Shown here: piece after piece, positions 26,997-48,754 of the stretch | Layout of the letters: every line of letters begins with the position of its first letter | Numbering within the stretch: the first letter of the stretch is position 1 | Assembly: GCA_964526235.1 (NCBI GenBank) | Contig: CAZGLC010000004.1 | Location: 1-48,754 of the forward strand | Direction: 5' to 3' | Length of the DNA stretch: 48,754 bases | Origin: an uncultured Bifidobacteriaceae bacterium | GTDB taxonomy: Bacteria; Acidobacteriota; Vicinamibacteria; Vicinamibacterales; UBA2999 | Made by a program: the position numbers and the translations under genes | Notes under the pieces: model-generated | Seen by the model: the letters and a program-made list of their open reading frames with translations, nothing else | Databases searched by the model: none | Told to the model about the DNA's origin: nothing

Positions 26997-27113
26997 CGGG
27001 ATCCGGGATCCGGGATCCGGGATGCGGGATCCGTGGTTCAAACGGTAGACGAGCCTCGCACAGCGAACGTCGAACTTGGAACCCGGATCCCGGATCCCCG
27101 GTCCCGGATCCCG
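26997..27113. repeat. Inverted pair of 7-nt tandem arrays: (CGGGATC)x5 - 50-nt spacer - (CCCGGAT)x4.5
   Basis: The left arm spans 26997-27031 as five units, the fourth being CGGGATG. The right arm spans 27082-27113 as CCCGGAT, CCCGGAT, CCCCGGT, CCCGGAT, CCCG. The arms are reverse complements of each other. The left arm carries five GGG tracts with 4-nt loops. Confidence 0.85.
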
Positions 27114-32629: not shown

Positions 32630-32752
32630 AGCACCTCCGTGCTGAAAAACGGCGCGGGTTGCGTGAGCACGCGGAGTGTATGCGCGCGCGTTGGTGTTGC
32701 GCAACTGCCGACTGCTTGGCGATCGACTCTTCCCTGTGACAGACTTTCGGAC

Positions 32753-33700: not shown

Positions 33701-34203
33701 ATCGGGATCTCGCATTCGGCGCCTCGGGCGTGGTCATCGCCGGCGGCTACTACAGGCTCGCCACCTCCATTCCCGACAGCGCGCTCGCGGATGCCGTGGG
33801 CCCGCAGGGGCTGCCAGTCGCGTACGCCGCCGTCCTGGCGCTGCTGTCCCTGATCCTCATCGCACGGTCGCTCCGACCCTCGAACGCAGAACCCGGATCC
33901 CGGATCCCGGATCCCGGATCCCACATCCCGGATCCCGGATCCCGGATCCCGCATCCCGGATCCCGTCTGCTTCGGGTCGCGGGCATGCTCGCCTTCGGGG
34001 CCCTGTACATCGTCCTGGTCCCCTGGCTCGGCTACACCGCGTCGCTCGCCGGACTGCTCTTCGCCGTCACGTGGTACCTGGGCGGCACCGTTCACCGATC
34101 GATGGCCGTCGTCGCAGTGTCCGGCGCCGTTGTCCTCTGGCTGCTCTTCGTGCGGCTGCTCGGCATCCCGCATCCGGCGGGCATCTGGGCCGGGCTCTTC
34201 TGA
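33697..34203 (+). CDS. tctB: Tripartite tricarboxylate transporter small membrane subunit TctB, carrying an in-frame heptamer-array insert
   Basis: A GTGA overlap couples it to tctC, and the gene lies between tctC and tctA. It has four hydrophobic segments. The loop after the second segment is encoded by the array at 33892-33965. Confidence 0.75.
   Translation: MNRDLAFGASGVVIAGGYYRLATSIPDSALADAVGPQGLPVAYAAVLALLSLILIARSLRPSNAEPGSRIPDPGSHIPDPGSRIPHPGSRLLRVAGMLAFGALYIVLVPWLGYTASLAGLLFAVTWYLGGTVHRSMAVVAVSGAVVLWLLFVRLLGIPHPAGIWAGLF
33892..33965. repeat. Tandem heptamer array (CCCGGAT), about 10.5 units, inside tctB
   Basis: The units start at 33892, 33899, 33906, 33913, 33920 (CCCACAT), 33927, 33934, 33941, 33948 (CCCGCAT) and 33955, with a partial CCCG at 33962-33965. 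The array is translated as PGSRIPDPGSHIPDPGSRIPHPGS. Confidence 0.9.
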
Positions 34204-34208
34204 CCGCC

Positions 34209-35687
34209 GTGTCCGCCGACGCGCTCCTGCTGATCGTCCCGTCCGCTGTCGGCGGCGTCATGTGGGGGATCCTCGGCGGCGCGCTGCCGGGCATCTCGCC
34301 GTCGATCACGATGGCGCTGCTGCTGCCGCTGACCTACGGCATGGATCCGACCGCGGCGATCGTGATGCTGGCCGCCACGTACGTGGGTGCCGAGTACGGC
34401 GGGTCGATTCCGGCGATCCTCATTCGCACGCCCGGTACGAACGCCGCGGCCGCCACCGTGGTCGACGGCTACGCGATGAAGGAGCAGGGGAGGGCGGGCG
34501 AGGCGCTCGGCATCTCGCTGTACTCCGGTGTGGTCGGCGGGCTCTTCGGCCTCGGGGTCGTCGTGCTGCTGGCGGAGCCGCTCTCGGCGGTCGCGCTCGC
34601 GTTCACGCCGCAGGCGTACTTCGCGCTCGGCGTGCTGGGCCTCAGTGTGATTGCCTCGCTCGCGCGCGAGTCGCTCCTCAAGGGGCTGATGGCGGGCGTG
34701 CTCGGGCTGATGATTGCCACGATCGGGACCGATCCGGTGACCGGACTCAACAGGTTCACGTTCGGCAGCCCCGAGCTGCTCTCGGGTATCCCGCCGATTC
34801 TTGTCATGGTCGGCCTGTTTGCGGTCGGCGAGCTGCTGGCGGAGAGCGGCGAGGTCGGCTGGCGCCAGGTCACGCCGGAGCGCGCCCGCATCCGCTTTCC
34901 CGGCCCGGCGATGTGGCGGCGGATCGCGCTGCCGCAGATGATCGGCTCGGTCATCGGCGCCTTCGAAGGGATGATGCCGGGCGGCGGCGGCGCGGTCTCG
35001 TCGTTTCTCGCCTACAACGAGGCGCGGCGCTGGTCGCGGCACAAGGAGGAGTTCGGCCACGGCTCGCCGGAAGGGATTGCCGCGCCGGAGGCGGCCAACA
35101 ACACCGTGGCGTGCACGGCGCTCGTCCCGATCCTCAGCCTCGGCATTCCGAGCTCCAACTCCTCGGCGGTCCTGCTCGGCGGCTTCCTCCTTCACGGACT
35201 CATTCCCGGACCGATGCTCTTCGTCTCGAATTCGGACGTCGTCACGGGCCTGTTCGCGGGCCTGCTGACGGCGAACATCGCGATGGTGATCGTCGGCTAC
35301 GTGATGATGGGCCCCTGCATCTGGCTCGTGAGCCGGCCGCGTCCCTATCTGATGGCGTTCATCTACGCGCTCGTCGTCTCGGGCGTCTATGCGATCGAGA
35401 CGAGCCTCTTTCAGGTCGGCGTGGCGCTCGTCTTCGGCCTGGTCGGCTACGCGCTGCGGTACCTCGAAGTGTCGCTGCTCCCGATGGTGCTCGGCGTCGT
35501 GCTCGGCTTCATGGTGGAGTCGAACTACCGCCGCGCGCTCGTGCTGTCGGGAGGCGACCACATGACGTTCCTGCAGGATCCGGTCTCGGCCGGCTTTTTG
35601 ATCGCGGCCACCCTGTTCCTGCTCGGCTCCACGGCTCATCACCTCGTCCGGGGAGGAAAACGCCCCCGGATGGACGTGCCGGCATGA
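34209..35687 (+). CDS. tctA: Tripartite tricarboxylate transporter large permease TctA
   Basis: GTG 34209 lies 5 nt after the tctB stop. The motifs GALPGISPS...ALLLP.TY, YGGSIPAILI.TPG and DGY.M are typical of TctA. The track ORF start at 34071 is rejected. Confidence 0.9.
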   Translation: MSADALLLIVPSAVGGVMWGILGGALPGISPSITMALLLPLTYGMDPTAAIVMLAATYVGAEYGGSIPAILIRTPGTNAAAATVVDGYAMKEQGRAGEALGISLYSGVVGGLFGLGVVVLLAEPLSAVALAFTPQAYFALGVLGLSVIASLARESLLKGLMAGVLGLMIATIGTDPVTGLNRFTFGSPELLSGIPPILVMVGLFAVGELLAESGEVGWRQVTPERARIRFPGPAMWRRIALPQMIGSVIGAFEGMMPGGGGAVSSFLAYNEARRWSRHKEEFGHGSPEGIAAPEAANNTVACTALVPILSLGIPSSNSSAVLLGGFLLHGLIPGPMLFVSNSDVVTGLFAGLLTANIAMVIVGYVMMGPCIWLVSRPRPYLMAFIYALVVSGVYAIETSLFQVGVALVFGLVGYALRYLEVSLLPMVLGVVLGFMVESNYRRALVLSGGDHMTFLQDPVSAGFLIAATLFLLGSTAHHLVRGGKRPRMDVPA

Positions 35688-37045
35688 CGCCGGTGGCTGA
35701 AACGCTGGCGGCGTGGCTCGCCGGTGTCGACGCGAAAGCACTTCCCGCCGATACCGTTGAGACCGCGCGGAAGCTGTTTCTCGACGTTGCGGGGCTGTGT
35801 GTCGCGGCGCGGCGCGAGCCGTATGTCACGGCGACCCTCGCGGCCGTCGATCGCGGCGGCGCATGCACGGCGGTCGGGCACGCGGGTACGTGCGACGCGT
35901 TCGGAGCCGCGCTCGTCAACGGCACCGCCGCGCACGGCGAAGACTTCGACGACACGTTCGAGGGGGGCCCGGTGCACTCGGGCGCCGTCATCGTCCCCGC
36001 CGTGATGGCGGCGTGCGAGCGCGAAGGGCTTGGCGGCGACCGGCTGCTCGTCGGGATCGTCACCGGCGTCGAGCTCCTGTGCCGGTTCAGCCTCGTCGCG
36101 CCGATGGCGACGCACAATGCGGGCTTTCATCCGACGGCCATCTTCGGCGCCCTCGCGGCGGCCGGCGCGTCCGGCGCCTCGCTCCGGCTGCCGCCGCCCG
36201 CGCTGGCGTCGGCCTTCGGCATCGCGGGCAGCATGGCGTCGGGCATCATCGAGTATCTGAGCGAAGGCACCTGGACCAAGCGGATGCACGCCGGATGGGC
36301 CGCGCAGTCCGGCATGCGCGCGGCGCTCATGGCGCGCGGCGGCTTCGTCGGTCCGCGGACGGTGCTCGAGGGGCCGAACGGCGTCTACCGCGCGTTCGCT
36401 CCATCGCGCCCGCCCGACTTCGCGCCGCTTCTCGACGGCCTTGGCTCGCGCTGGGTGATGCCGTCGGTGGCGTTCAAGCCGTACCCGTGCGGGACGATGG
36501 TGCAGCCGTTCATCGACTGTGCGCTGAAGCTCCGCGCCGATGGCGTGCGGGCCGGGGATGTGCGGGAGATCGTGTGCGAGGTGGCGCAGGGCACGGTCCC
36601 GCGGTTGTGGGAGCCGCTCGCGTCGAAGCACCGCCCGCCGACGCCGTACGCCGCCAAGTTCAGCACGCCGTTCTGCATGGCGGTCGCCTTCACCGACGGC
36701 CGCGTCGGCCTGGCGCAGTTCAGCGAAGACCGCATTCACGACCCGGCCGTTCTCGGGCTGGCCTCGAAGATCCGGTACACCATCAATCCCGCCGACGAGT
36801 ACCCGCGCAAGTTCAGTGGGCACCTGCGCGCCGCGCTCGGGGACGGCGGGGAGCGGGAGTACCGTCAGCCGTGCATGCGCGGCGGGGCGGACGCGCCGCT
36901 GCCGCTCGCGGAGCTGGAGGCGAAGTTCATGGACAACGCGCGGTACGGTGGATGGACCGGCGCGACGGCGGAGCGGCTGCGCGAGATGTCGCAGGCGCTC
37001 TTTATCCAGCCGACACTCGAGGTGCTGAAGGAGTTCAGGGGATGA
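35684..37045 (+). CDS. MmgE/PrpD family protein (paralogue 2)
   Basis: An ATGA overlap couples it to tctA. The motifs D..G......R and AAHGEDFDD are present, and the 453-aa protein has a PrpD-type architecture. It is the only real part of track ORF 34130-37045. Confidence 0.9.
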   Translation: MTPVAETLAAWLAGVDAKALPADTVETARKLFLDVAGLCVAARREPYVTATLAAVDRGGACTAVGHAGTCDAFGAALVNGTAAHGEDFDDTFEGGPVHSGAVIVPAVMAACEREGLGGDRLLVGIVTGVELLCRFSLVAPMATHNAGFHPTAIFGALAAAGASGASLRLPPPALASAFGIAGSMASGIIEYLSEGTWTKRMHAGWAAQSGMRAALMARGGFVGPRTVLEGPNGVYRAFAPSRPPDFAPLLDGLGSRWVMPSVAFKPYPCGTMVQPFIDCALKLRADGVRAGDVREIVCEVAQGTVPRLWEPLASKHRPPTPYAAKFSTPFCMAVAFTDGRVGLAQFSEDRIHDPAVLGLASKIRYTINPADEYPRKFSGHLRAALGDGGEREYRQPCMRGGADAPLPLAELEAKFMDNARYGGWTGATAERLREMSQALFIQPTLEVLKEFRG

Positions 37046-37063
37046 GGGAGAACTTACCTGATC

Positions 37064-37813
37064 ATGGCGATGCATAACGAACTGGCCGGCTCCGTCGCCC
37101 TCGTCACCGGCAGCGCGCGCAACATCGGGCGCGCCATCGCGCTGGCGCTCGCGGATGCCGGCGCGGCGGTCATGATCACCGGCCGCCAGGCGCTGGCGGA
37201 TGCGGAGGCTGTGGCGGCCGAGGTTCAACAGGCGGGCGGCCGCGCTACGGCGATGACGGCCGACGTCGGGGATCCTGGCGCCGTGGACGCGCTCGTGACG
37301 GCGACCGTCGAGCGGCTCGGCCGCCTCGACATTCTGGTCAACAACGCCAGCATCCGGCGCGAGGTCGATTTCGCGAGCCTCGACTACGCCGAGTGGCGCG
37401 CCGTGCTCGCCTCCACGCTCGATGGTGCCTTTCTTTGCAGCCGCGCGGCGCTGCCGCACCTCATCGCCTCGGGCCGCGGCGCCATCGTCAACATCGGCGG
37501 GCTCTCGTCGCATACCGGCGCGCCGCGGCGCACGCACGTCATCGCGGCGAAAGCGGGTCTCGCGGGGCTGACGCGCGCCCTCGCGCACGACCTCGCGCCG
37601 CACGGCGTCACCGTGAACTGCGTGGCGCCCGGACTCATCGACACCACCCGCGCGGGACCCGAGCCCGCGCACCACAAGAAGCTGGCATCGCCTGTAGGGC
37701 GCAAAGGACGTCCGGAGGAGGTGGCGGCGCTCGTCCGCTTTCTCTGTGGTCCTGGCGCGCGCTACATCACGGGTCAGATCGTGCACGCCAACGGCGGGCT
37801 CTACATGGGATAG
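37064..37813 (+). CDS. SDR-fold oxidoreductase with atypical active-site region
   Basis: The motifs VTGSARNIGRAIA (TGxxxxIG), NNAS and VNCVAPGLIDT are present. However, the segment NIGGLSSHTGAPRRTHVIAAKAG aligns by eye with the classical NISS...........YxxSKAG. That alignment places Gly and Val where the catalytic Ser and Tyr are expected. Confidence 0.85.
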   Translation: MAMHNELAGSVALVTGSARNIGRAIALALADAGAAVMITGRQALADAEAVAAEVQQAGGRATAMTADVGDPGAVDALVTATVERLGRLDILVNNASIRREVDFASLDYAEWRAVLASTLDGAFLCSRAALPHLIASGRGAIVNIGGLSSHTGAPRRTHVIAAKAGLAGLTRALAHDLAPHGVTVNCVAPGLIDTTRAGPEPAHHKKLASPVGRKGRPEEVAALVRFLCGPGARYITGQIVHANGGLYMG

Positions 37814-37836
37814 TGGAGCTGATGCGTTGGTGGGTC

Positions 37837-38253
37837 TCAGGCCGGGCTCACGCCCTCACGCCGTGCGGCCTCGAGCAGACGGTCGTCAAACGCGACAATC
37901 GTCAGCTCCTCGCCGAGCTCGTCGCGCAAGTAAAGGCAGCTGGCGAGCTGAATGGCATCGCCGGCGCGCAAGGGGTGCTTGTGCAACAGAGCGCGTGCCC
38001 GCGCGCTGATGGCCGACGTCAGTTCGACGACCAGGATTGCCGGGAAATCGACCGCGAGCGCGGCAAGCGCACGATTCCGCTCCGCCGTCGAGAATGCGCC
38101 TTCCCGCGCGCGCCGCTCCAATGCCGAGGCGACCTCCACCTCGGAGAGCCGGCTCGTCGCCGGAAGATCCGCAGAGAGAAGACGGCGAACCCTCATGCTC
38201 CCTGCTTCGCGTATGTACCGCTTGACAAGGGCGCTGGCGTCGAAATACCGCAT
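37837..38253 (-). CDS. vapC: PIN-domain type II toxin VapC
   Basis: The N-terminus MRYFDASALVKRY carries the first acidic residue, and later acidic motifs are D.IQLA and FDDRL. It is 138 aa and shares an ATGA overlap with the upstream antitoxin. Confidence 0.85.
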   Translation of the reverse strand: MRYFDASALVKRYIREAGSMRVRRLLSADLPATSRLSEVEVASALERRAREGAFSTAERNRALAALAVDFPAILVVELTSAISARARALLHKHPLRAGDAIQLASCLYLRDELGEELTIVAFDDRLLEAARREGVSPA

Positions 38254-38540
38254 CAGAACCGGTCGCTGCGATCCTCGAGAACAGCCTCGGCGACCGAGCG
38301 ACCGCGGCTTCGGACCTGGCGGAACGGCCTGAGCGCTCTGTCCGCCGTGCGGGTGACTGCGCCGAGGGCCTTCAGCTTGGCCAGCACGGCGTCCGTGTGT
38401 GTGCCGGCCTCCAACGGGCGCAGCTCGGCAACCGGCTCACCGCGGTCGGTGATGACCAGCGTCCGTCCCTGGCGCACTCGGCGGAGATAGGCGCCCAGGC
38501 GCGCCTTCAGTTCACGCGCCCCGACCAGATTGCGTTCCAT
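38253..38540 (-). CDS. Phd/YefM family antitoxin (VapB-like partner of the PIN toxin)
   Basis: The start is ATG 38540, inside track ORF 38253-38996. The sequence VGARELKARLGAYLRRVRQGRTLVITDRGEPVAEL has the Phd/YefM N-terminal pattern. Confidence 0.8.
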   Translation of the reverse strand: MERNLVGARELKARLGAYLRRVRQGRTLVITDRGEPVAELRPLEAGTHTDAVLAKLKALGAVTRTADRALRPFRQVRSRGRSVAEAVLEDRSDRF

Positions 38541-38560
38541 GTGGTCATTGTGACCACATG
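38538..38560. promoter_or_regulatory. Perfect 10-3-10 palindrome overlapping the antitoxin start codon (probable vapBC operator)
   Basis: The sequence CATGTGGTCA-ttg-TGACCACATG spans 38538-38560. Positions 38538-38540 are the ATG of the antitoxin on the minus strand. Confidence 0.6.
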
Positions 38561-38696
38561 CCACACGTGCGTCAACGCAGGGCCAGCGAGCCCACGGGGT
38601 ATGCCAACCTGCGTGAGTGCCTGGCAACGGCGGGCTCGACATGGGCTGAAACGGGTGCAGTATAGTAGCCGGCATCAACAGCTTGCAGAAGGACGC

Positions 38697-39086
38697 ATGA
38701 AGCATCTGACATGGATCGGCCTGTGCGCGGCTGCGATCGCGCTTGGAATCGTCTCCCCGGCCTATTCGCATCACTCGCACGCGATGTTCGACCACACGAA
38801 GCCGCAGACGGTCACCGGAACGGTGAAGGAATTCCTGTTCCGCAACCCGCACGTTTATCTCTACGTCGACGTCAAGAACGACCGCGGCGACGTGGTGACC
38901 TACTGGGTCGAGATGTCGAACCTCCAGAACATGATCAAGCAGGGGATCAACCAGAACACGCTGAAGGTCGGCGACGTGGTGACCGTGACGATGCATCCGC
39001 TCAAGGACGGGCGTCCGGGCGGCAACTACGAGACGATGAAGACGGGTGACGGCCGGTCGTTCGGCCGCGAGCCGGACCTGAATTAG
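38697..39086 (+). CDS. DUF6152 family small secreted protein (copy 2)
   Basis: The signal peptide ends SPAYS, followed by HHSHAMFD. The motifs VTGTVKEFLFRNPHVYLYV, W.VEM and KVGDVVTVTMHPLKDG match the family. Confidence 0.8.
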   Translation: MKHLTWIGLCAAAIALGIVSPAYSHHSHAMFDHTKPQTVTGTVKEFLFRNPHVYLYVDVKNDRGDVVTYWVEMSNLQNMIKQGINQNTLKVGDVVTVTMHPLKDGRPGGNYETMKTGDGRSFGREPDLN

Positions 39087-39097
39087 AGGCCGCCATC

Positions 39098-40228
39098 ATG
39101 CACGCCATGACAACGGCCATCCGTGCCGGCGCCGCGCTCGTCGTCCTCGCGATGGCGACGCCGGCCGCCGCGCAGACCGCGCAGCGGACGATCTTCACCA
39201 CGCCCGACATTCGCCAGGATCGCGACCTCTGGACCGATCCTGCGTACTACCGCAACAACACCGTCGGCCAGCTCAGAGGCATGGCGATCGGCACCGAGCC
39301 GGGCGGCGGCTCGACGCAGCAGGCCGGCTCGCGGGTCTACGGATCGGCGGGCACGGCCAAGCCCGGCGCGCTCGATCTTTCGACGCCCTATCCGTTCAAG
39401 ACCGCGATGGAGCACTACCAGGCGTGGCTGAAAGAGGCGGGTGGCGGCACCAGACACACCGCGGCGACGATTCCCAACTGGCGCGGGCGCTGGGCGGGCG
39501 GCCCCGCGGGTCTCGGCGGCGGGCCGAATCCGGCCAGCTATGTCGCCTCACTGTTGACGCCGGCGTATCGCGAATACTTCGTGCGCGAGCTGAAGGCATA
39601 TACGGAAGGGCGCATCTGGTCGGCGGGATCGATCTGCCTGCCGGGCGGGTTCTTCGCCGCCGTCGGCGCCGAAGAGTTCATCGTGACGCCCGAACAGGTG
39701 TGGACGCTCGGGTCGTCAAACGCGCAGAACTACATCCGCTGGATCTATACCGACGGCAGCGGACACAGCCCGAAGGATGCCGAGTTCGCCAAGTGGCACG
39801 GCGAGTCGATCGGCTTCTGGAACGGCGATGCGCTGATCGTCCACACGAATCAGATCCACGGATGGAAGGGTGGGCCGTCGGAGTTCACCGACAACCTCGA
39901 GACGGTGGAGCGCTACCGGCGCGTCGGCGACCGGATCGAGGGCGAGATCACGCTGTACGACCCGGAGGTCTTCGTGCGGCCGGTGCACGCGAGGGTTCGG
40001 TACCAGCTCGACACGGAGACGCGCCTCGAGCTCAGGCCGACCTACAACACGTGCACCGACACGAACGGCCCGTCCAACAAGGTGTACATGGACGAGCGCG
40101 GCATCCTGAACGAGCGCATTCCGGGCGACCCGCTGTACTTCGACCCCACCGACCCGCGGCCGTGGCGCACGTACCTCGACGAGAGCGATCGACGGTACGA
40201 GCGGTACCGGAAATCGCAGGGGCGCTGA
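39098..40228 (+). CDS. Secreted protein of unknown function (376 aa)
   Basis: The signal peptide is MHAMTTAIRAGAALVVLAMATPAAAQ. The codon usage is G/C3-rich. It lies 11 nt after DUF6152 copy 2 and 26 nt before the hydrolase. I recognise no motif. Confidence 0.65.
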   Translation: MHAMTTAIRAGAALVVLAMATPAAAQTAQRTIFTTPDIRQDRDLWTDPAYYRNNTVGQLRGMAIGTEPGGGSTQQAGSRVYGSAGTAKPGALDLSTPYPFKTAMEHYQAWLKEAGGGTRHTAATIPNWRGRWAGGPAGLGGGPNPASYVASLLTPAYREYFVRELKAYTEGRIWSAGSICLPGGFFAAVGAEEFIVTPEQVWTLGSSNAQNYIRWIYTDGSGHSPKDAEFAKWHGESIGFWNGDALIVHTNQIHGWKGGPSEFTDNLETVERYRRVGDRIEGEITLYDPEVFVRPVHARVRYQLDTETRLELRPTYNTCTDTNGPSNKVYMDERGILNERIPGDPLYFDPTDPRPWRTYLDESDRRYERYRKSQGR

Positions 40229-40254
40229 TCGACACGGCGTCTGGAGGTGCTGAG

Positions 40255-41415
40255 ATGACTCGGCTCTTTGTGTTCGTGGCGGCGTTGGCCGGCGTCGGTT
40301 CATTGTCGATGCTGCGGGCGGCCCCCGCGGACGACCTCATCTCCGTGGACCACTACGTCCGGATGAAATCCACCGTGCCCGCGTTGGCCGGGCAGGTCGC
40401 GCACGTGTACCTGCGCGAGCGCGCCAATCCGGCGGTGCTGCTCCGCACCGCCACTCTCGCCGACCGCGTCGTCCTGTTCGTCCATGGGGCGGGTACGCCG
40501 GCCGAGGTGGCGTTCGATGTGCCGCACAGCGACTACAGCTGGATGGCGTACCTCGCCGGCGACGGCTTCGACGTCTTCTCGATGGACCAGACGGGCTACG
40601 GCCGATCCACGCGTCCGGCGCCGATGGACGACCCGTGCAATCTGTCGCGCGAGCAGCAGGCGACGCTGGTCCCCCTGCTGATCGCGGCGCCGTGCGCCCA
40701 GAGCCACGGCACCGCCCTCACGACGATGGCGACCGACTGGGACGAGATTGCGGCCGTGGTGGAGTACATCCGCGCGCTGCGCCGCGTCGAGCGCGTGGCG
40801 CTCGTCGCCTGGTCGCGCGGCGCCCCGCGTGCGGGGGGCTACGCGGCGCGCCACCCGTCCACGGTTTCGCGGCTGGTGCTGCTGGCGCCGGCCTACGATC
40901 GCTCCACGCCGGCGGCCGCCGCCGCCGCCCAGCCGGCCGCCGGAGCGGCGATGAACACGCAGTCGCGCCGGGAGTTCATGGCCAACTGGGACCGGCAGGT
41001 CGGCTGCGCGGATCAGTACGATCCCGCGGTCGCCGACGCGGTGTGGACCGAGATGCTGCGGTCGGATCCGGTTGGCGCGACGTGGGGGCCCGGCGTCCGT
41101 CGCGCGCCCAACACCACCGGCACGTGGACGCAGGCGATCGTGAGGAAGCTTGGGGTGCCCACGCTGATGGTCACGGGGGTCCACGACCGGCAGGTCCCGC
41201 CGGAACGCGTGCGGCAGCTGTACGAAGACATCGGTTCGACGGAGAAGGTCTTTGCCGATCTCGGGTGTTCGTCGCACAACGCCATGTGGGAGCGCAATCG
41301 GCTCGCGCTCTTCGAGGCGTCGCGGACGTGGCTCACGACCGGCACCGTCAACGGCATGAAGCAGGGGACGATTCGCCTCGGGTATCCCACTGCGGCGGGC
41401 ACGCCGACCAACTGA
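40255..41415 (+). CDS. Secreted alpha/beta-hydrolase fold protein
   Basis: A GGAGG lies 7 nt upstream, and the protein has a signal peptide. The HG oxyanion motif is LFVHGAG. The nucleophile-elbow-like motif is VAWSRGA. Late Asp and His candidates are VTGVHD and CSSHNAM. Confidence 0.8.
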   Translation: MTRLFVFVAALAGVGSLSMLRAAPADDLISVDHYVRMKSTVPALAGQVAHVYLRERANPAVLLRTATLADRVVLFVHGAGTPAEVAFDVPHSDYSWMAYLAGDGFDVFSMDQTGYGRSTRPAPMDDPCNLSREQQATLVPLLIAAPCAQSHGTALTTMATDWDEIAAVVEYIRALRRVERVALVAWSRGAPRAGGYAARHPSTVSRLVLLAPAYDRSTPAAAAAAQPAAGAAMNTQSRREFMANWDRQVGCADQYDPAVADAVWTEMLRSDPVGATWGPGVRRAPNTTGTWTQAIVRKLGVPTLMVTGVHDRQVPPERVRQLYEDIGSTEKVFADLGCSSHNAMWERNRLALFEASRTWLTTGTVNGMKQGTIRLGYPTAAGTPTN

Positions 41416-41428
41416 CAGAGAACTACAC

Positions 41429-42412
41429 ATGCGCGTGACCGTGACGCTCGCACTTGCGCTCGCGGTGCTCGCCACCGCCTGCAACCCGCGCGAGTTCGCG
41501 CGCGAGCACGGCGGCATCACGCGCCTGTCGATCGCGACGGGGAACACGGGCGGCGTCTATTACCCGTACGGGGGCGGCATCGCGAAGGTCGTCAGTGAGG
41601 CCCTGCCGCGCGTGCAGGTCACCGCGGAAGTCACCGCGGCGTCGGTGGACAACCTCAAGCTCATTCAGCTCGGCAAGGTCGACATCGCCTTCGCGCTCGC
41701 CGACACGCTCGACGACGCGATCAAGGCGCGCGGTCCGTTTGCGAAGACCGGGGCGGTGCGCGCGCGGACGCTCGCGGTGCTCTATCCGAACTACACCCAT
41801 CTCGTGACCGTGGCCGGCAACGGCATCGACCGCATCGCCGATCTGAAAGGGAAGGTGGTGTCGACCGGTTCGGCCGGCAGCGGCACGGAAGTGATCGCGC
41901 TGCGAGTGCTGCGCGCCGCCGGCCTCGATCCCGATCGCGACCTCCGCCGGCAGGCGCTCTCGGTGAACGCGTCGGTGGACGCGTTGAAAGACGACAAGAT
42001 CGATGCCTTTTTCTGGAGCGGCGGCGTGCCGACCGCCTCCGTGCTCGACCTCGCCAGCACCACGGGCATCACCGCGAAGCTGATTCCCAACGACGAGGTG
42101 CTGTCGGCGCTCCAGGCCGAGTTCGGCGCGGCTTTATACCACCGCCTGGTCATGCCGAAGGGCGCGTATCCCGGGCAGGAGGCCGACGTGGCGGTCGTTG
42201 GCGTGCAGAACGCGCTCGTCGTCGATGCCGCGATGGACGAGGCGCTTGCCTACGATCTCACGCGCACGCTCTTCGAGCGGCGCGCCGACCTGGCGGCGAT
42301 CCATCCGGAGGCGCGGCTGCTCGATCCGGCACGCGCCGTCCTCGGCTCGCCCGCCGACTTCCATCCGGGCGCGATCCGCTACTACCAGGAACAGGGTGTG
42401 TGGAAACCGTAG
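41429..42412 (+). CDS. TAXI-family TRAP transporter solute receptor (lipoprotein)
   Basis: The lipobox is LATA-C. The motifs TGNTGGVYYPYGGGIA, SV.N..L...G..D.A and STGSAGSGTE are typical of TAXI proteins. Confidence 0.9.
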   Translation: MRVTVTLALALAVLATACNPREFAREHGGITRLSIATGNTGGVYYPYGGGIAKVVSEALPRVQVTAEVTAASVDNLKLIQLGKVDIAFALADTLDDAIKARGPFAKTGAVRARTLAVLYPNYTHLVTVAGNGIDRIADLKGKVVSTGSAGSGTEVIALRVLRAAGLDPDRDLRRQALSVNASVDALKDDKIDAFFWSGGVPTASVLDLASTTGITAKLIPNDEVLSALQAEFGAALYHRLVMPKGAYPGQEADVAVVGVQNALVVDAAMDEALAYDLTRTLFERRADLAAIHPEARLLDPARAVLGSPADFHPGAIRYYQEQGVWKP

Positions 42413-44364
42413 CGCCCGTCACCACGGCGCCTGAGGACGTCGGGACCGAATCACCCACCAGAGAGCTTCGCGGCATCACCGGCGGCCTCGCCACGGCGCT
42501 CGCGATCGGCCTGTCGCTGTACGCGCTGTACTGGGTCGTCGGCATCGTCCAGCCGTTCATCTATCGCGTCACGTTCCTGTGGCTCGCGCTCGTCCTGAGC
42601 TTTCTGTACTATCCGGCAGGCGTGCGCGACCGCACGCGCACCACGCCGCTCGATTGGGCGCTGATCGTGCTGACGACGATCGCGCTCGCCTGGCCGATCG
42701 TCGACTTCGATCAGTTCATCTATCGCGCCGCCGATCCGACGGCCGTGGACGTGACGGCGGGCATCCTCGTCATGGTGGCGGTGCTCGAAGCCACGCGCCG
42801 CACGACCGGGTGGATTCTGCCGGTGACCGCCGCGGCGTTCCTGGTGTATTCGTTCTACGGGCCGTTGCTCGACCTCGTCGGCCTCAGCCTGCTCGCGCAC
42901 CGCGGCTACGACCCGCCGCGCATCGTCGGCACGTCCTTCATGACGCTCGAAGGGATCTTCGGCGTTCCGATCGACGTGGCGGCCACCTACATCATTCTGT
43001 TTTCCCTCTACGGCGCGATCCTCACCGCATCGGGCGCCGGCCGCTTCTTCCTCGACTGGTCGATGGCGGCCGTCGGCCGATCGGGCGGCGGCGCCGGACC
43101 GGGACGCGCGGTCACGATTGCAGGACTGCTGCTCGGCACCATCTCGGGGAGCGGCGTGGCCAACACGGTCACGCTGGGATCGGTCGCGTGGCCGCTGCTC
43201 AAGCGCGCGCGCTATCCGGCAGAGATGGGGGGCGCGGTGCTCTCGGCCGCGGGCATCGGCGCCATCATCTGTCCGCCGGCGCTCGGCGCCGCCGCGTTCA
43301 TCATCGCCGAGTTCCTGCGCATCAGTTATCTGCAGGTCCTCATCATGGCGGCGATTCCGGCGCTGCTCTACTTCTTCTCGATCTTTCTGATGATCGAGGC
43401 CGACACGCGTCGCGCCGCCGCCGCGCCCGTCGAGGTCTCCGCCGACTCGGTCTGGCAGATCACCCGGCGGTCCGGGTACCACTTCCTGGCGCTCGTCAGC
43501 ATTCCGGCGTTCCTGCTGACGGGGACGACCGCTTTTCGCGCCGTCTTCTACTCGATGGCGATCGCGGTCGCGCTCAGCTTCGTCGATCGCGCCAACGCCC
43601 TGTGGCCGCGGCGGCTGGTGCAGGCGCTCTACACGGGCGCGCGCAGCGTGCTGCCGATTGCCGCGACGACGGCAACCGCCGGGATCATCGTCGGGACGGT
43701 CACGCTGACCGGGCTGGGGCTCAAGATCGCGGGTGTCATCGTGGCGCTCGCCGGCGGGCAGCTCTTTCTGACGGTGCTCTATTCGGCGGTGGCGGTGCTG
43801 ATGCTCGGGCTCGCCGTTCCGGTGACGGCGTCCTACATCATCGCGGCGGTCATGGTCGCACCCGCGATGATTCAGGTCGGCGTGCCGGAGCTCGGCGCGC
43901 ACATGTTCATCTTTTATTACGCGGTGCTGTCCGAGGTGAGCCCACCCACGGCGCTCTCGCCGTTTGCGGCGGCCGCCATCACGGGCGGCCGGCCGTTTCC
44001 GACGATGATGCTCACGTGGAAGTACACCCTGCCGGCGTTCGTCTTCCCGTTTGCATTCACGCTGAGCGAGCAGGGCATGGGGCTGCTGATGCAGGGCGGC
44101 CCTGCGGCAATCGCGCTGGCGACCGGGACCGCGGCGGCCGGCATTCTCGCGCTGGCCGCGGGCCTGGGCGGATGGATTCGCGGACCCGCCACGCGGCTCG
44201 AGCGCGCGCTCGCGGTGGCCGGCGGACTGCTGCTGTTCTATGCGGCGAGCTGGTCGGACGCGGCGGGGGTCGTGCTGTTCGCCGCGGCGGTCGGATTACA
44301 CCTCACGCGGCTGAGGGCGCAGCGCCGGGTCCCCAAGGACCCGGCCTACGCGCGCGAGGTCTAG
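42400..44364 (+). CDS. TRAP transporter fused (DctQ-DctM type) permease
   Basis: This 654-aa polytopic membrane protein overlaps the TAXI gene by 13 nt. The fused 4TM+12TM size is typical of TAXI-associated permeases. Confidence 0.9.
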   Translation: METVAPVTTAPEDVGTESPTRELRGITGGLATALAIGLSLYALYWVVGIVQPFIYRVTFLWLALVLSFLYYPAGVRDRTRTTPLDWALIVLTTIALAWPIVDFDQFIYRAADPTAVDVTAGILVMVAVLEATRRTTGWILPVTAAAFLVYSFYGPLLDLVGLSLLAHRGYDPPRIVGTSFMTLEGIFGVPIDVAATYIILFSLYGAILTASGAGRFFLDWSMAAVGRSGGGAGPGRAVTIAGLLLGTISGSGVANTVTLGSVAWPLLKRARYPAEMGGAVLSAAGIGAIICPPALGAAAFIIAEFLRISYLQVLIMAAIPALLYFFSIFLMIEADTRRAAAAPVEVSADSVWQITRRSGYHFLALVSIPAFLLTGTTAFRAVFYSMAIAVALSFVDRANALWPRRLVQALYTGARSVLPIAATTATAGIIVGTVTLTGLGLKIAGVIVALAGGQLFLTVLYSAVAVLMLGLAVPVTASYIIAAVMVAPAMIQVGVPELGAHMFIFYYAVLSEVSPPTALSPFAAAAITGGRPFPTMMLTWKYTLPAFVFPFAFTLSEQGMGLLMQGGPAAIALATGTAAAGILALAAGLGGWIRGPATRLERALAVAGGLLLFYAASWSDAAGVVLFAAAVGLHLTRLRAQRRVPKDPAYAREV

Positions 44365-44365
44365 A

Positions 44366-44761
44366 TCAGAAGTCGGACGGCGCCGCCGCGCTGTTGCCGT
44401 CCCAGTCCTTGACCGAGCCGTCACGGGCCTTCAGGAACCCGAGCAGGCAGCCGCGCGAGCCGTCGCGCAGCGGATGGCACCGCACCTTGATCGTGTCGCC
44501 CGCCTTGATGTACTCACGGTTGACGCCGATGCGTTCGAGGCCGTTGCGACCGGTCGCTTCGAGCGCCCACATCTGCGGCTCCCCGCTCGCGTCCTTCACC
44601 TCCATGTACACCCAGGAATGCGGAACGACCAGGTGAACTTCCTTCACCACGCCGGTCATGTCCGAAAAGGTGTCCATATAGTTGCCGTGGGAATGATGCG
44701 CGGCCACCGGCAACGCGAAGAACACCGCACAGAGGATCGCGATACTGAATCGAAACTGCAT
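44366..44761 (-). CDS. DUF6152-like small secreted protein (copy 3, divergent subtype with two Cys)
   Basis: The signal peptide ends LPVAA, followed by HHSHGNY. The motifs VPHSWVYMEVKD, IKAGDTIKVRCHPLRDGSRGC are present. It is a close paralogue of copy 4. Confidence 0.75.
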   Translation of the reverse strand: MQFRFSIAILCAVFFALPVAAHHSHGNYMDTFSDMTGVVKEVHLVVPHSWVYMEVKDASGEPQMWALEATGRNGLERIGVNREYIKAGDTIKVRCHPLRDGSRGCLLGFLKARDGSVKDWDGNSAAAPSDF

Positions 44762-44858
44762 GTCAGCCTCCCAAGAACTCCTCCATATTAGCCAAGAAGG
44801 CCGCGCCGCGCTACACTGCGCCGGGCGCGCTTGACGGCCGGCGCGCGGAGGTGGGGGG

Positions 44859-45134
44859 ATGCGCCTGGGACTGATGCTGGCGGGCGTTCTGGCGATGGCG
44901 CCGGGGCCTGTCTTCGCGCAGGACTGGACTGAATTTGCGAGCCGGGAAGACCGCTTTACCTCGATCTACGTGCACGAGAACAGGTTGTACATTATGGAGG
45001 GCACCGTGCCCGACGGGATGCCGGAGCCGGGCCTCTTTCAGCAGTCGCTCGGATGGCGTGACGAGAATGGCGGCTGCATCAGATATTCCGGCATCTACCT
45101 GCACGGGGCGCCGAAGCCGGCGCGCACTCGATAG
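44859..45134 (+). CDS. Small secreted hypothetical protein
   Basis: A GGAGG lies 8 nt upstream. The signal peptide is MRLGLMLAGVLAMAPGPVFA-Q. It is 91 aa and lies between the two inverted DUF6152-like genes. Confidence 0.45.
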   Translation: MRLGLMLAGVLAMAPGPVFAQDWTEFASREDRFTSIYVHENRLYIMEGTVPDGMPEPGLFQQSLGWRDENGGCIRYSGIYLHGAPKPARTR

Positions 45135-45161
45135 ATAGATAGTGAGATAGAGGAGGACATC

Positions 45162-45560
45162 ATGCTGTTCAGACTCGCGCTCGCGTTCGTGTTCGCCGCG
45201 GCGATTGGCGTCCCCATCGCCGGGCATCACTCGCACGGCAACTACTCCGACACGTTCACCGACATCGAAGGGATCGTCAAGGAACTACACCTCGTCGTCC
45301 CGCATTCGTGGGTGTACATGGAGGTCAAGGACGCGCAGGGGCAGCCGCAGATCTGGGCGCTCGAGGCGACGGGCCGCGGCGGGCTCGAGCGGATCGGCGT
45401 CACCCGCGAGTACATCAAGGCGGGCGATCGGATCAAGGTCCGGTGCCATGTGCTGCGCGACGGCTCGCGCGGCTGTCTGCTCGGGTTCCTGAAGGCGGCC
45501 GACGGCACCGTCAAGGACTGGGACGGCGGCGCCAATACGCCGATCCCGACCGATTTCTGA
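45162..45560 (+). CDS. DUF6152-like small secreted protein (copy 4)
   Basis: An AGGAGG lies 5 nt upstream. The signal peptide ends VPIAG, followed by HHSHGNY. Across the mature part it is about four-fifths identical to copy 3, judged by eye. Confidence 0.75.
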   Translation: MLFRLALAFVFAAAIGVPIAGHHSHGNYSDTFTDIEGIVKELHLVVPHSWVYMEVKDAQGQPQIWALEATGRGGLERIGVTREYIKAGDRIKVRCHVLRDGSRGCLLGFLKAADGTVKDWDGGANTPIPTDF

Positions 45561-45627
45561 GTCGGCCCGGTCGCCTGTATAGTACGCGCTCGTTTGTCGG
45601 GGGGTAACTCGCTACAAGGAGTCTGAC

Positions 45628-48561
45628 ATGACACTCGGACGATTGGTCTGGTTGGCCGTCCTCGCCATCCTCGTCCTGCCGCCGCTCGCCGCGGCGCAGG
45701 AAGCCACCCTCAACGGCACGGTGCGCGACAACACCGGCGGCGTGCTGCCGGGTGTGACCGTCACCGCGACGCACGATGCCGCGGGGAGCACGTTCGTCGG
45801 CGTCACCGATCAGAGCGGCGCCTACCGCATCTCGCTGCGCACGGGCGTGTACCGGGTGACGGCGGAGCTCTCCGGCTTCGCGACCGTCGCGAGACCCGGC
45901 ATCGAGCTGCTGCTCGGCCGCGAAGTGACCCTCAATCTCGACATGGGCGTGTCGGGCGTGCAGGAGACCGTCACGGTCACCGGCGAAGCGCCGCTCATCG
46001 AGGTCACCTCGTCGACCGTGAGCGGCAACATCGACCCGCGCCAGATGTCGGAGCTGCCGGTCAACGGCCGCAACTGGATGGACCTGAGCCTGCTGGCGCC
46101 GGGCAGCCGCGCGAATGCAGCGAGTGAAGTGCCGCAGGACCGGCAGGGCTTCTTCCAGGTGAACCTCGACGGCCAGCAGATCACGCAGCTGATCTGCTGC
46201 TCGCAGCAGCAGCCGCGGTACAGCCGGGACGCGATCGCGGAGTTCGAGCTCATCACCAACCGGTTCGACGCGACGCAGGGGCGTTCGCAGGGCATGGTGG
46301 TGAATGCGATCACCAAGTCCGGGACGAATACGCCGGCCGGGACGTTCTCCGGCTATTTCCGGGACGACAGCTTCAACGCGGAGGACTTCATCCAGCGACG
46401 GGTGCTCCCGTACTCCGACCAGCAGTTCAGCGGGACGTTCGGCGGCCCGATCCGACGCGACCGGATCCACGTCTTCGGCAACTACGAGTACGAGCGTGAG
46501 CCGCGTACAGTCACCTTCAATAGTCCGTACCCGAGCTTCAACATCGACCTGCCCGGAACCCGCACCCAGCATACGGGCGGCGTCCGCAGCGACGCGCAGT
46601 TCACGCCGCAGTCGCACCTGACGATGCGCTACGCGAAGTACTACCAGCTGATCCCGCGGGAGGCCACCGGCGGCGCCGCGCTGCATCCGTCCACGTCGCG
46701 GAGCACCCGCCGTGAGAGCAATCAGGTCTGGCTGACGCAGGCCTGGGTGCTGAATGACCGCACCCTCAACCAGCTGAAGGGCGGATTCTCGGATTTCCAC
46801 TGGGCGCTGACGACCGATCCGAAGTGGCAGGGAGGATCCTTCCCGGTCGACAAGGGGATGGGGGGCGCCGCGCCCACCATCTTGTTCACCGGCTACTCGA
46901 TCGGGACGCAACCCTCCAACGCGCCGCAGGACATCTTCGAGCGGATCTGGTCGATTCGTGACGACTTTACGCTGTCGTACACGGCGATGGGCCGCCATGA
47001 TCTGAAGACCGGCGCCGAGTACCTGAACTGGTACGGCAACTGGCTGCACTGGTGCAATCGCTGCGCGGGCGTGTACTCGACCAATTCGCGCCCCCCGGCG
47101 AACGTCGAATCACTGTTCCCGGTCTGGAATGACGTGTCCACGTGGAACCTGGCGCCGCTGTCGCCGCTCATCACGCGCTACGAGGAATCGTTCGGCGACC
47201 ACAGCATGACGCGCCGCCGCAACGTCTTCGCGTTCTGGCTGCAGGACGACTGGTCGGCGACGAGCCGCCTCACGCTGAACCTCGGTGTCCGGCACGATCT
47301 CGACTTCGGGGTGCTCGGCGAGGACATCGAGTTCCGGCCGTGGCTGTCGGGGAACCGTCCGGCCGACACGAACAACATCGCGCCGCGGCTCGGCTTCGCC
47401 TACCAGCTGAACGACCGCACCGTCGTCCGCGGCGGCTACGGGCTGTTCTACACGCAGCTCGAGAGCGACGCGGCGCACCAGTCGGAGCTCTGGACCCGCA
47501 CGGCCATTCCACAGGTGCTGAACAACGGACGGGCCGACTTCGCGGTCAACCCGTTCAACGGCCCGAGGCCGACCTACGAGCAGGTGCTCGCCGGCGCGTG
47601 CGACCAGAACGGCAACAGGCCGGGCTGCTTCCGGCGATCCATCACGATCGAGATCCCCGGCCCGAGCGAGAGCGGGATGGAGAAGCTGCATGAAGTGAGC
47701 TTCAGCCATCAGGCGTCGGTCGGCCTCCAGCGGCAGTTCGGCGGCGTGATGGCGATCGAAGCCAACTACGTCTTCACCGGCGGCCGCGCCGAGGAGGTCG
47801 CGCGCAACATGAACCTGTCGTACAACGCGGCGACGCTGGCGAACAACCCGTTCACCAACGCGGCGCTGCTGCCGTTCCCCGAGTGGGGGACCGTGCTCGG
47901 CGAGTTCATGATCGGCCGGACCAACTACCATGGCCTGGAGATGAACTTCACCAAGCGGATGAGCGACCGCTGGCAGGCCAACGCCACCTACTCGCTGTCA
48001 GGCTTCTACGATTCACCGGGCGAGCCGGTGTTCGTCCAGCCGGACGGCCGCGGCGGCGTCATGTGGAGCCCGCTCGCGTTCCGCGTGTCTCCGGATCTCG
48101 GTGACGACTACTCGCTCGCGGTGACGGATCAGCGGCATCGGGCCACGTTCAACGGGATCTGGGAACCGGGCTACGGCGTCCAGTTGAGCGGGTTGTATTT
48201 CTTCGGTTCCGGCCTGCGGTATGTCACCAACTGGGGCGGCGACCTGCGCAACCTGGGGACGACCGCGGACCAGGGCAGCTGGGGCGCGGGTCGGCTGCGT
48301 CCGGACGGCGCCATCGTCCCACGCAACGACCTCGTCGGCGATCCGATCCATCGCGTCGACATGCGGATCCAGAAGCGGTTCAGGTTTGGCGGTCGCGTGA
48401 CGGCCGACGGGATGGCCGAGGTGTTCAACATTTTCAACCACGCGAACTACGGCTCGTATACCACTGCCGTGAGCAACGCCAACTTCGGCCGGCCGTCGTT
48501 CAACGCGAACGTCGCGTACCAGCCGCGCATCGTGCAGCTCGGCTTCCGCTTCGCGTTCTGA
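45628..48561 (+). CDS. TonB-dependent receptor with N-terminal CarboxypepD_reg-like domain (TBDR-2)
   Basis: An AAGGAG SD is present, and the protein has a signal peptide. The N-terminal segment reads LNGTVRDNTGGVLPGVTVTATH....TDQSGAYRI. It is 977 aa and has a C-terminal ...LGFRFAF. Confidence 0.9.
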   Translation: MTLGRLVWLAVLAILVLPPLAAAQEATLNGTVRDNTGGVLPGVTVTATHDAAGSTFVGVTDQSGAYRISLRTGVYRVTAELSGFATVARPGIELLLGREVTLNLDMGVSGVQETVTVTGEAPLIEVTSSTVSGNIDPRQMSELPVNGRNWMDLSLLAPGSRANAASEVPQDRQGFFQVNLDGQQITQLICCSQQQPRYSRDAIAEFELITNRFDATQGRSQGMVVNAITKSGTNTPAGTFSGYFRDDSFNAEDFIQRRVLPYSDQQFSGTFGGPIRRDRIHVFGNYEYEREPRTVTFNSPYPSFNIDLPGTRTQHTGGVRSDAQFTPQSHLTMRYAKYYQLIPREATGGAALHPSTSRSTRRESNQVWLTQAWVLNDRTLNQLKGGFSDFHWALTTDPKWQGGSFPVDKGMGGAAPTILFTGYSIGTQPSNAPQDIFERIWSIRDDFTLSYTAMGRHDLKTGAEYLNWYGNWLHWCNRCAGVYSTNSRPPANVESLFPVWNDVSTWNLAPLSPLITRYEESFGDHSMTRRRNVFAFWLQDDWSATSRLTLNLGVRHDLDFGVLGEDIEFRPWLSGNRPADTNNIAPRLGFAYQLNDRTVVRGGYGLFYTQLESDAAHQSELWTRTAIPQVLNNGRADFAVNPFNGPRPTYEQVLAGACDQNGNRPGCFRRSITIEIPGPSESGMEKLHEVSFSHQASVGLQRQFGGVMAIEANYVFTGGRAEEVARNMNLSYNAATLANNPFTNAALLPFPEWGTVLGEFMIGRTNYHGLEMNFTKRMSDRWQANATYSLSGFYDSPGEPVFVQPDGRGGVMWSPLAFRVSPDLGDDYSLAVTDQRHRATFNGIWEPGYGVQLSGLYFFGSGLRYVTNWGGDLRNLGTTADQGSWGAGRLRPDGAIVPRNDLVGDPIHRVDMRIQKRFRFGGRVTADGMAEVFNIFNHANYGSYTTAVSNANFGRPSFNANVAYQPRIVQLGFRFAF

Positions 48562-48568
48562 ACACGAA

Positions 48569-48631
48569 GGGGTCAGGGCACAGGGGTCAGGGGTCAGCGA
48601 GTTCGCCCTGCCCCCTCCCCTGACCCCTGAC
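48569..48631. repeat. Palindromic heptamer array (GGGGTCA type) / terminator-like hairpin after TBDR-2
   Basis: The left arm reads GGGGTCA GGGCACA GGGGTCA GGGGTCA (48569-48596). The right arm reads CCCTGCCCCCTCCCCTGACCCCTGAC (48606-48631). GTCAGGGGTCAG (48586-48597) is the exact reverse complement of CTGACCCCTGAC (48620-48631). Confidence 0.8.
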
Positions 48632-48754
48632 GAACCACCGATGTATCTGTTTAGCGGGTCAGCGCTCTGCTGATCCGCTCTTCCGTCCCCACGACACACC
48701 GAGGCACTGAGGCAGCGATACTGAGCACGCTGTATCTCTACCGCGGGCGCGCGT

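Follow-up and report, generated by a model that had tools for sequence, protein, structure and literature searches.

In this study, we analysed the contig CAZGLC010000004.1, a stretch of 48,754 nt with about 69% G+C that is called the window throughout, and explored within it a locus at 38697–48561 which encodes secreted DUF6152 proteins, a secreted protein of 376 aa from an unnamed family (U376), a secreted alpha/beta-hydrolase (HYD), a TAXI-TRAP transporter and an outer-membrane protein resembling TonB-dependent receptors (TBDRs). The item of note at this locus is the uncharacterised pair of DUF6152 and U376 (D–U), which, to judge from its gene neighbourhoods, is a genuine conserved module whose two partners function together. 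For the locus as a whole we propose, with moderate confidence, a mosaic made up of three adjoining transcription units in the organic-acid-uptake neighbourhood of an uncultured, Vicinamibacterales-like acidobacterium, and not one envelope-spanning machine. The first unit (38697–44364) would consist of the conserved D–U module, the optional HYD and TAXI-TRAP placed in a variable slot, the second would comprise two copies of a second DUF6152 subtype, duplicated in inverted orientation around a decayed gene, and the third would be the TBDR-like outer-membrane protein with a promoter of its own. An earlier account of the same DNA, made without database searches and referred to here as the sequence-only reading, had instead assembled all parts into one integrated pathway, with import by the TBDR, trimming by the periplasmic hydrolase, inward transport by TAXI-TRAP and the DUF6152 proteins as accessory binders.

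The DUF6152–U376 pair

The gene of the secreted DUF6152 protein D2 (129 aa; 38697–39086, plus strand) is followed on the same strand by that of U376 (39098–40228). Conservation of gene order had been set beforehand as one test of the proposed system; it was observed for these first two genes and failed for the locus as a whole. A census of U376, in which one genome per species was scanned, returned 55 loci spanning Vicinamibacterales, Terriglobia, Micropepsaceae, Rhodospirillaceae and the gammaproteobacterial Rariloculaceae (loci of this and the other samples carry L numbers). Of the 53 loci in which U376 matches well, 41 have a D2-type DUF6152 gene as the immediate 5′ neighbour in equal orientation, corresponding to 42 of 62 U376 copies, and these adjacent pairs cover Acidobacteriota, Alpha- and Gammaproteobacteria. 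Loci without an adjacent DUF6152 gene are those where U376 forms tandem arrays, where the contig ends or where the paralogue is divergent. In several pairs, start and stop codons overlap by 4 nt. Upon unsupervised clustering of all open reading frames (ORFs) within 7 kb of the 55 loci, U376 and DUF6152 emerged as the only widely shared families, the next commonest neighbour being TctA with 9 loci. Additionally, six single ORFs of 349–392 aa (L006, L008, L037, L047, L075 and L148) unite both partners in one polypeptide, with a signal peptide and His-His at the start, an N-terminal DUF6152 and a C-terminal U376-like domain, and the DUF6152 half was confirmed by Pfam in all four of the fusions scanned (L006, L037, L047, L148). 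Adjacency, translational coupling and repeated fusion together indicate that DUF6152 and U376 work jointly, and we expect that they probably form a complex in the periplasm. Directly 3′ of the pair, hydrolases of other folds are encoded in L008, L055 and L148 (amidohydrolase) and in L147 (metallo-beta-lactamase, MBL), and a different secreted alpha/beta-hydrolase is found at this position in L033 and L051.

Neither partner of this secreted pair has been characterised previously. For U376, searches of Pfam, NCBIfam and the PDB were empty, the profile search against the PDB even at E ≤ 10, and all 638 close homologues (66–91% identity) are labelled hypothetical. The superfamily is widespread, since a profile search over 1.84 billion representatives returned 2224 clusters at E ≤ 1e-3, i.e. 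more than 2000 clusters at 50% identity from at least two phyla. A Pfam scan of 20 distant or short members gave no family for the domain; one of them carries an added SnoaL domain. The structure model of U376 reached a pLDDT of 65 and a pTM of 0.70, and its best-conserved motifs, CLPGGF, GWKGG and NTCTDTNGP, fall into low-confidence loops. Foldseek, as the sequence-only reading had suggested for this protein, was run on the model and returned nothing beyond a weak resemblance to avidin/lipocalin-type barrels with E of about 0.05–0.1, which we take as a hint only; the core of U376 is possibly a calycin-like beta-barrel with a conserved Cys pair. An apparent alpha/beta-hydrolase/U376 fusion (P0485) was rejected, its C-terminal half resembling an out-of-frame translation, and a kinship between U376 and the secreted X241 family described below was rejected as well, profile–profile comparison giving no relationship. 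It should be noted that tandem arrays of 3 to 4 U376 paralogues with at most one DUF6152 gene are present in two alphaproteobacterial, Micropepsaceae-like loci (L023, 2222–5874; L036, 5739–12162), and that on the Micropepsaceae chromosome OZ252020.1 U376 is found at five or more separate places. Little is understood of the Acidobacteriota, although they abound in soil, and a function for a module of which their genomes contain several copies would be useful.

N-terminal histidines of DUF6152

Family calls were made from Pfam and NCBIfam profile scores against the cutoff of each model. With a cutoff of 27 bits for PF19649, D2 (92.5 bits) and two further copies described below, D3 (74.7 bits) and D4 (66.2 bits), all lie above it. 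The AlphaFold2 model of D2 (pLDDT 83) displays five strands and a helix arranged as an OB barrel. Foldseek matched it only generically to OB folds (best E = 3e-3), and the matches to nucleic-acid-binding OB proteins were set aside as uninformative on the function of a secreted protein; a weak match to TOBE_2 (E = 0.006) stayed under the cutoff, and comparison of DUF6152 with solved structures by sequence revealed no similarity.

At the N-terminus, His-His follows directly after the signal peptide in all 73 sampled DUF6152 ORFs, and all four copies of the window are predicted from their sequences to carry a small-residue −3/−1 cleavage motif and then HH, with mature D2 starting with the His-rich HHSHAMFDH. 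Residues H25, H26, S27, P51, H52 and several Gly are invariant in the four paralogues and 31 homologues, where H52 is part of an NPH motif. Residues 23–26 of the D2 model, against which the placement of H52 would be judged, are below a pLDDT of 50. The invariant N-terminal His-His suggests a metal site in DUF6152, and the previous description of these proteins as possibly metal-dependent periplasmic accessories fits the universal junction of signal peptide and His-His.

Secreted families with a conserved N-terminal His have repeatedly proved to be metal binders, one of them, DUF4198, being a Ni binder that occurs next to TonB receptors (PMC12537917). The N-terminal-His families described in that work do not include DUF6152, and no mention of DUF6152 was found in the literature. 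Its invariant N-terminal His-His is a feature of a type that recently led to new metalloprotein families. DUF6152 resembles the known N-terminal-His metalloproteins, namely the histidine-brace proteins LPMO, CopC and YcnI as well as DUF4198, DUF6702 and the 'anglerases' (PMC12537917), in its predicted His as residue 1 and in its small, beta-rich and periplasmic character, and it has a further invariant His (H52). With DUF4198 it additionally shares a location next to TonB receptor-type genes. In contrast, LPMO, CopC and YcnI adopt an Ig/cupredoxin-like sandwich while DUF6152 is predicted as an OB fold, and compared to the histidine-brace proteins DUF6152 features a second invariant His at position 2 and an obligate partner in U376, with fusion of the two in some cases. 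As a small five-stranded periplasmic barrel, DUF6152 is also similar to CusF and to TOBE-type OB domains, CusF being a periplasmic metallochaperone with a small OB/beta-barrel. The Met/Trp motif by which CusF holds Cu(I) is one that we take to be missing from DUF6152.

In an alternative explanation, DUF6152, with U376, would serve periplasmic metal handling instead of substrate processing. As a metallochaperone or uptake relay, it would take over a metal (Cu, Ni, Zn or another) that TBDR-type importers have brought in and supply it to enzymes of the periplasm, for instance hydrolases, pyrroloquinoline quinone (PQQ) dehydrogenases or cytochromes, and the carboxylate transporters nearby would be unrelated. 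The universal His-His junction, the invariant His52, the His-rich start of D2, the small OB/beta-barrel seen also in CusF and the precedent of the Ni-binding DUF4198 beside TonB receptors would all be in line with such a relay, and so would the position of DUF6152 genes next to TBDR-like genes (window, L001, L060, L065), to cytochrome c (L004) and to the metal-dependent MBL and amidohydrolase folds. However, the loci examined contain neither a Fur-, Zur-, NikR- or CueR-type regulator nor a metal transporter, U376 has no recognisable metal motif, and both the four DUF6152 paralogues within 25 kb and the Micropepsaceae U376 arrays (L023, L036) suggest diversification over substrates; we consider metal handling a possibility, but on the unlikely side. 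A tentative idea of similarly low probability is that DUF6152 and the U376 domain constitute a hitherto unrecognised two-subunit, sometimes fused periplasmic metalloprotein, in which His1, His2 and His52 of the OB-fold subunit would make up a histidine-brace-like site facing the beta-barrel partner. Such a complex, be it a redox enzyme, a hydrolytic enzyme or a metal relay, would operate together with the secreted hydrolases, PQQ dehydrogenases and cytochromes c of Acidobacteriota and Proteobacteria from soil.

The fourth DUF6152 copy of the window, D1 (about 24409–24810, minus strand), is more divergent, with a signal peptide followed by HHSISG, and was recognised only by tblastn (33–35% identity) and alignment. 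It is located directly upstream of a PAS/HisKA/HATPase/receiver hybrid kinase (22785–24344, minus strand) and divergent from genes for an SBP_bac_3 protein, an NHL-repeat propeller and a DASS symporter (27033–28502). A membership of these D1 neighbours in the NCBIfam families associated with PQQ catabolism was considered and ruled out.

The secreted hydrolase

The third gene of the unit encodes HYD (386 aa; 40255–41415, plus strand), which matches Abhydrolase_1 (64.8 bits) and Hydrolase_4 (63.4 bits), both over the cutoff. A Ser187-Asp311-His341 triad with an A-W-S187-x-G elbow is invariant over 20 homologues, as are four Cys, and the family comprises more than 5800 members. Its neighbourhoods were sampled at 80 metagenomic loci, 33 of which have at least 6 kb of flank. 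DUF6152 or U376-like (U-like) genes are found near HYD at about 10 of the 80 loci and at 7 of the 33 well-flanked ones, while PQQ dehydrogenases occur at 5 of the latter. Trios of DUF6152, U376 or a U-like gene, and HYD are present in the window, L059, L060, L096, L109 and L111, and the HYD homologue of L062 (Terriglobia) has none of the window's neighbours. As judged from these neighbourhoods, HYD is a recurrent but optional companion of D–U modules, and the association of DUF6152, the unknown protein and the hydrolase, to which the sequence-only reading had drawn attention, recurs in unrelated lineages.

A particularly extended arrangement is displayed by two metagenome contigs (L064 and L065, 1–9465) with an HYD homologue 66% identical to that of the window. 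Here DUF6152, two U-like proteins of 247 and 318 aa, two PQQ dehydrogenases, HYD, an 83-aa protein, a Plug-containing TBDR, DUF4154 and a peptidase M49 are encoded co-directionally, the PQQ dehydrogenases being of the soluble, glucose/quinate/shikimate type. As an observation of its own, this cluster resembles a periplasmic oxidation locus, in which the TBDR might import PQQ or a substrate. A D-x-D in the PQQ dehydrogenases of L065 was dropped as a lanthanide signature, the motif being non-diagnostic in the best-scoring glucose/quinate/shikimate family.

The TAXI-TRAP transporter and its slot

The TAXI solute-binding protein (41429–42412, plus strand) scores 289.8 bits against TIGR02122 (cutoff 84.35) and 252.9 bits against NMT1_3 (PF16868), and the fused Q+M TRAP permease (42400–44364, plus strand) scores 475.3 bits against TIGR02123 (cutoff 320.65) and additionally matches DctM (PF06808). 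TAXI carries a lipobox-like ...LATAC, which makes it a probable lipoprotein, and aligns over its full length to PDB entries 1us4 and 8u79 with E of about 1e-38. It belongs to the same binding-protein family as T. thermophilus TtGluBP (1US4/1US5), the binding protein of V. cholerae VcGluPQM and the P. mirabilis TAXI protein, has an adjacent, overlapping gene for a fused Q–M permease and retains the GVY(Y/F)P motif's Tyr. In the glutamate-binding members, the ligand's amino group is contacted by a Gln, Q78 in TtGluBP and Q93 in VcGluP (PMC11574862), whereas the corresponding residue in the window protein is Leu90. Glutamate specificity is therefore unlikely, and a non-amino carboxylate is the more likely ligand as far as this residue tells. 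Otherwise, TAXI-TRAP is here a standard pair.

Its link to the neighbouring genes is of narrow distribution. HYD, TAXI and TRAP were detected in none of the 55 U376 loci, even at E ≤ 1e-4, and of the 80 HYD loci just one has TAXI/TRAP, namely L067, which is a short contig of an 82%-identical relative; the 33 well-flanked loci have none. The claimed coupling of TAXI-TRAP to DUF6152, U376 and HYD is hence restricted to the nearest relatives. In L001, where U376 and the TBDR-like protein are 83% and 80% identical to those of the window, the order is SDR, D2, U376, a minus-strand DUF6152 gene (D(−)) and TBDR, without HYD, TAXI or TRAP. L004 and L014 (U376 75–76% identical) show D2 and U376 followed by opposite-strand SDF, MFS and cytochrome c genes and then D(−), again lacking TAXI-TRAP; beyond D(−), L004 continues with X241 and a plus-strand DUF6152 gene (D(+)) with no TBDR thereafter, and L014 ends at D(−). 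In L059 (HYD 84% identical) we observed the order DUF6152, U376, HYD, SDF, TAXI, TRAP, D(−), X241, D(+), Iso_dh and TBDR, and in L060 (HYD 78% identical) a minus-strand TBDR, TctCBA, PrpD, SDR, DUF6152, U376, HYD, X241, SDF, minus-strand DASS, TAXI, TRAP, D(−) and TBDR. The window fits this syntenic order. What separates U376 from the minus-strand DUF6152 gene is evidently, in the loci compared, a slot for shuffled carboxylate or anion transporters (SDF, DASS/CitMHS, MFS, or nothing), and by the same comparison TAXI-TRAP is joined to D–U only in the closest relatives.

Such variation could also mean pure juxtaposition, with D2–U376, HYD and TAXI-TRAP being unrelated genes packed into a transporter-rich, rearrangement-prone region and their co-transcription being incidental. 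The content between U376 and D(−) does range from nothing in L001 over SDF, MFS and cytochrome c in L004 and L014 to extra SDF, DASS and X241 genes in L059 and L060, local turnover is visible in a toxin–antitoxin insertion, a decayed gene (S91) and an inverted duplication, and most HYD homologues occur without any of these neighbours. On the other hand, DUF6152 and U376 or a U-like gene followed by HYD recur where HYD is only 61–66% identical and the U-like protein is of a different subfamily (L096, L109, L111, L065), and the presence of DUF6152 or U-like genes at 7 of 33 well-flanked HYD loci is several-fold over the expectation for rare families by a rough estimate without formal test. We regard mere juxtaposition as unlikely and favour the mosaic reading, in which the D–U module is conserved, HYD optional and TAXI-TRAP, like the outer-membrane receptor, an exchangeable neighbour.

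Transcription units

All nine ORFs of the locus were found at their coordinates, and its periplasmic proteins all have signal-peptide-like N-termini. The five co-directional genes from D2 to TRAP lie 11, 26 and 13 nt apart, with TAXI and TRAP at the end overlapping by 13 nt, exactly as the sequence-only reading had given them. The octamer GTATAGTA is present as a −10-like element at 38660–38667 (plus strand), with its end 29 nt short of the start codon of D2. Another copy at 45577–45584 (plus strand) ends 43 nt before the start codon of the TBDR-like gene, where a conserved leader follows; these are the only 2 occurrences in the 48.7-kb window compared to 0.03 expected. We read the GTATAGTA copies as −10 elements, the alternative being a shared regulatory site, and the copy before D2 is the probable promoter of the five-gene unit. 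A GTATAGT-like element precedes the D2 orthologues in L001, L059, L060, L004 and L014 and is kept whether the SDR gene or a toxin–antitoxin insertion lies upstream, and in L060 TATAAT and the same leader stand before the TBDR orthologue despite a different preceding gene. In consensus scans, all terminator-like matches in the operon were intragenic and the single promoter match belonged to the antitoxin gene; the Rfam scan of 37000–48754 revealed no riboswitch or other RNA family. Since promoter-like elements lie before both D2 and the TBDR-like gene and no terminator-like match is intergenic, this pattern supports D2 to TRAP as one unit and the TBDR-like gene as another. The five-gene operon proposed previously is plausible in view of its tight gaps, the purely intragenic terminator-like matches and the −10-like element before D2.

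The two further DUF6152 genes that had been described downstream both exist, but the first of them, D3 (44366–44761), resides on the minus strand and is convergent with the TRAP gene, with 1 nt separating the stop codons, while D4 (45162–45560) is on the plus strand. D3 and D4 are 73% identical and form the arms of a 376-nt inverted repeat (44396–44771 and 45152–45527) with 78% complementarity. In between lies S91, a 91-aa ORF (44859–45134, plus strand) without family match, which alignment reveals to be an in-frame, internally deleted remnant of the secreted X241 family of about 240 aa; it keeps the N-terminal ~35 and the C-terminal ~55 residues, and ~150 central residues are gone. Full-length X241 occupies the position of S91 in L004 and L059, and because these two loci have the layout D(−), X241, D(+) in common with the window, the duplication of D3 and D4 is considered old. 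The X241 family has no Pfam model; its genes adjoin DUF6152/U376 genes at 8 or more loci, which represent several phyla.

The last gene (45628–48561, plus strand) encodes a 977-aa protein with an N-terminal CarboxypepD_reg (PF13620, 60.9 bits) and OMP_b-brl_4 (PF25183, 297 bits), its orthologue in L001 being 80% identical. As to its designation as a TonB-dependent receptor, PF00593, the 22-strand TonB-dependent beta-barrel to which PF25183 is related, reaches only 24 bits with a cutoff of 27, and Plug (PF07715) was detected neither in the whole protein at E ≤ 0.01 nor in residues ~110–290 at E ≤ 10; we therefore call it TBDR-like and not a verified TBDR. Lying beyond a convergent gene with a promoter-like element and 5′ leader of its own, and being absent 3′ of the DUF6152 pair in L004, this gene is by its context a separate unit that is inconsistently linked to D–U.

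The pathway from TBDR over hydrolase to TAXI-TRAP would, if true, represent a new type of envelope-spanning uptake, which the comparative data do not uphold. All of its parts lie within 10 kb, five of them tightly spaced, the order D–U–HYD, TAXI–TRAP, D(−) and TBDR is kept in L059 and L060, and the independent lineage of L064/L065 joins DUF6152, U-like proteins, HYD and a Plug-containing TBDR co-directionally. Nevertheless, L059 and L060 have other transporter genes between HYD and TAXI, none of the 55 U376 loci and none of the 33 HYD loci with ample flanks has TAXI/TRAP, L001 dispenses with HYD, TAXI and TRAP in spite of its closely similar U376 and TBDR-like proteins, and L004 has the DUF6152 pair and no TBDR. 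In addition, the TBDR-like gene sits past a convergent gene with its own conserved promoter-like element, and acidobacterial outer-membrane proteins of the CarboxypepD_reg type are common in such loci regardless. As in TonB-receptor loci of the polysaccharide-utilisation type, genes for a barrel of the outer membrane, for one or more secreted hydrolases and for an importer of the inner membrane are assembled within 10 kb, yet here the parts are not co-conserved, fall into separate transcription units with promoter-like elements of their own and include a barrel without detectable Plug. We consider an integrated pathway improbable.

Proposed model

Within the mosaic of three units, we propose a model in which DUF6152 would bind a metal ion via its N-terminal His-His and His52, whereupon DUF6152 together with U376, and here also with HYD, would bind or convert a periplasmic organic substrate, the carboxylate product of which would finally be imported by whichever secondary transporter adjoins. 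The role of the D–U pair is one that we infer, and several observations weigh against the model. Metal binding, complex formation and substrate are all predictions. The U376 model is only moderately confident, its best-conserved loops being the least so, and Foldseek gave no match below E = 1e-3. HYD occurs without DUF6152 or U-like genes in 26 of the 33 well-flanked loci, so that its link to the module is statistical and not obligate. Owing to the tight spacing, TAXI-TRAP is probably co-expressed with D2, U376 and HYD in this genome, and a functional link is possible in this lineage. Finally, the synteny among close relatives rests on few loci, namely L001, L004, L014, L059, L060 and L067.

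Upstream neighbourhood

The genes for a tricarboxylate-type transporter (TctC, TctB and TctA), an MmgE/PrpD-family enzyme and an SDR (32699–37813, plus strand) are syntenic with relatives, the TctCBA–MmgE/PrpD–SDR block being located directly 5′ of D2 in L060, L004, L014 and L001. The statement that no cytoplasmic catabolic enzyme is present holds for 38697–48561 itself, but MmgE/PrpD and SDR are encoded directly upstream. Between the SDR gene and D2, a toxin–antitoxin pair of VapC (PIN, PF01850) and Phd-YefM (PF02604) type is inserted (37837–38540, minus strand), which is absent at this spot in L001, L059 and L060; its two genes overlap by 1 nt, and the palindrome GTGGTCATTGTGACCAC is found at the start of the antitoxin gene.

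On the other side of the Tct genes, a 1330-aa ORF (29723–33715, minus strand) is over-extended, with CarboxypepD_reg beginning only at residue 391 and the part upstream of it overlapping the plus-strand TctC gene (32699–33697), whose product is 86% identical to TctC of L060. Since CarboxypepD_reg starts late and the overlapped TctC has a counterpart in L060, the real content of this region is, by our annotation, a TBDR-like gene of about 960 aa divergent from a complete tctCBA operon. MmgE/PrpD-family genes are present both at 18331–19704 and at 35684–37045 (both plus strand), with 34% mutual identity of their products. Further upstream, an acyl-CoA dehydrogenase, a 3-hydroxyisobutyrate-type dehydrogenase and an SGL gluconolactonase-like protein are encoded, which gives this part of the window a flavour of organic-acid catabolism.

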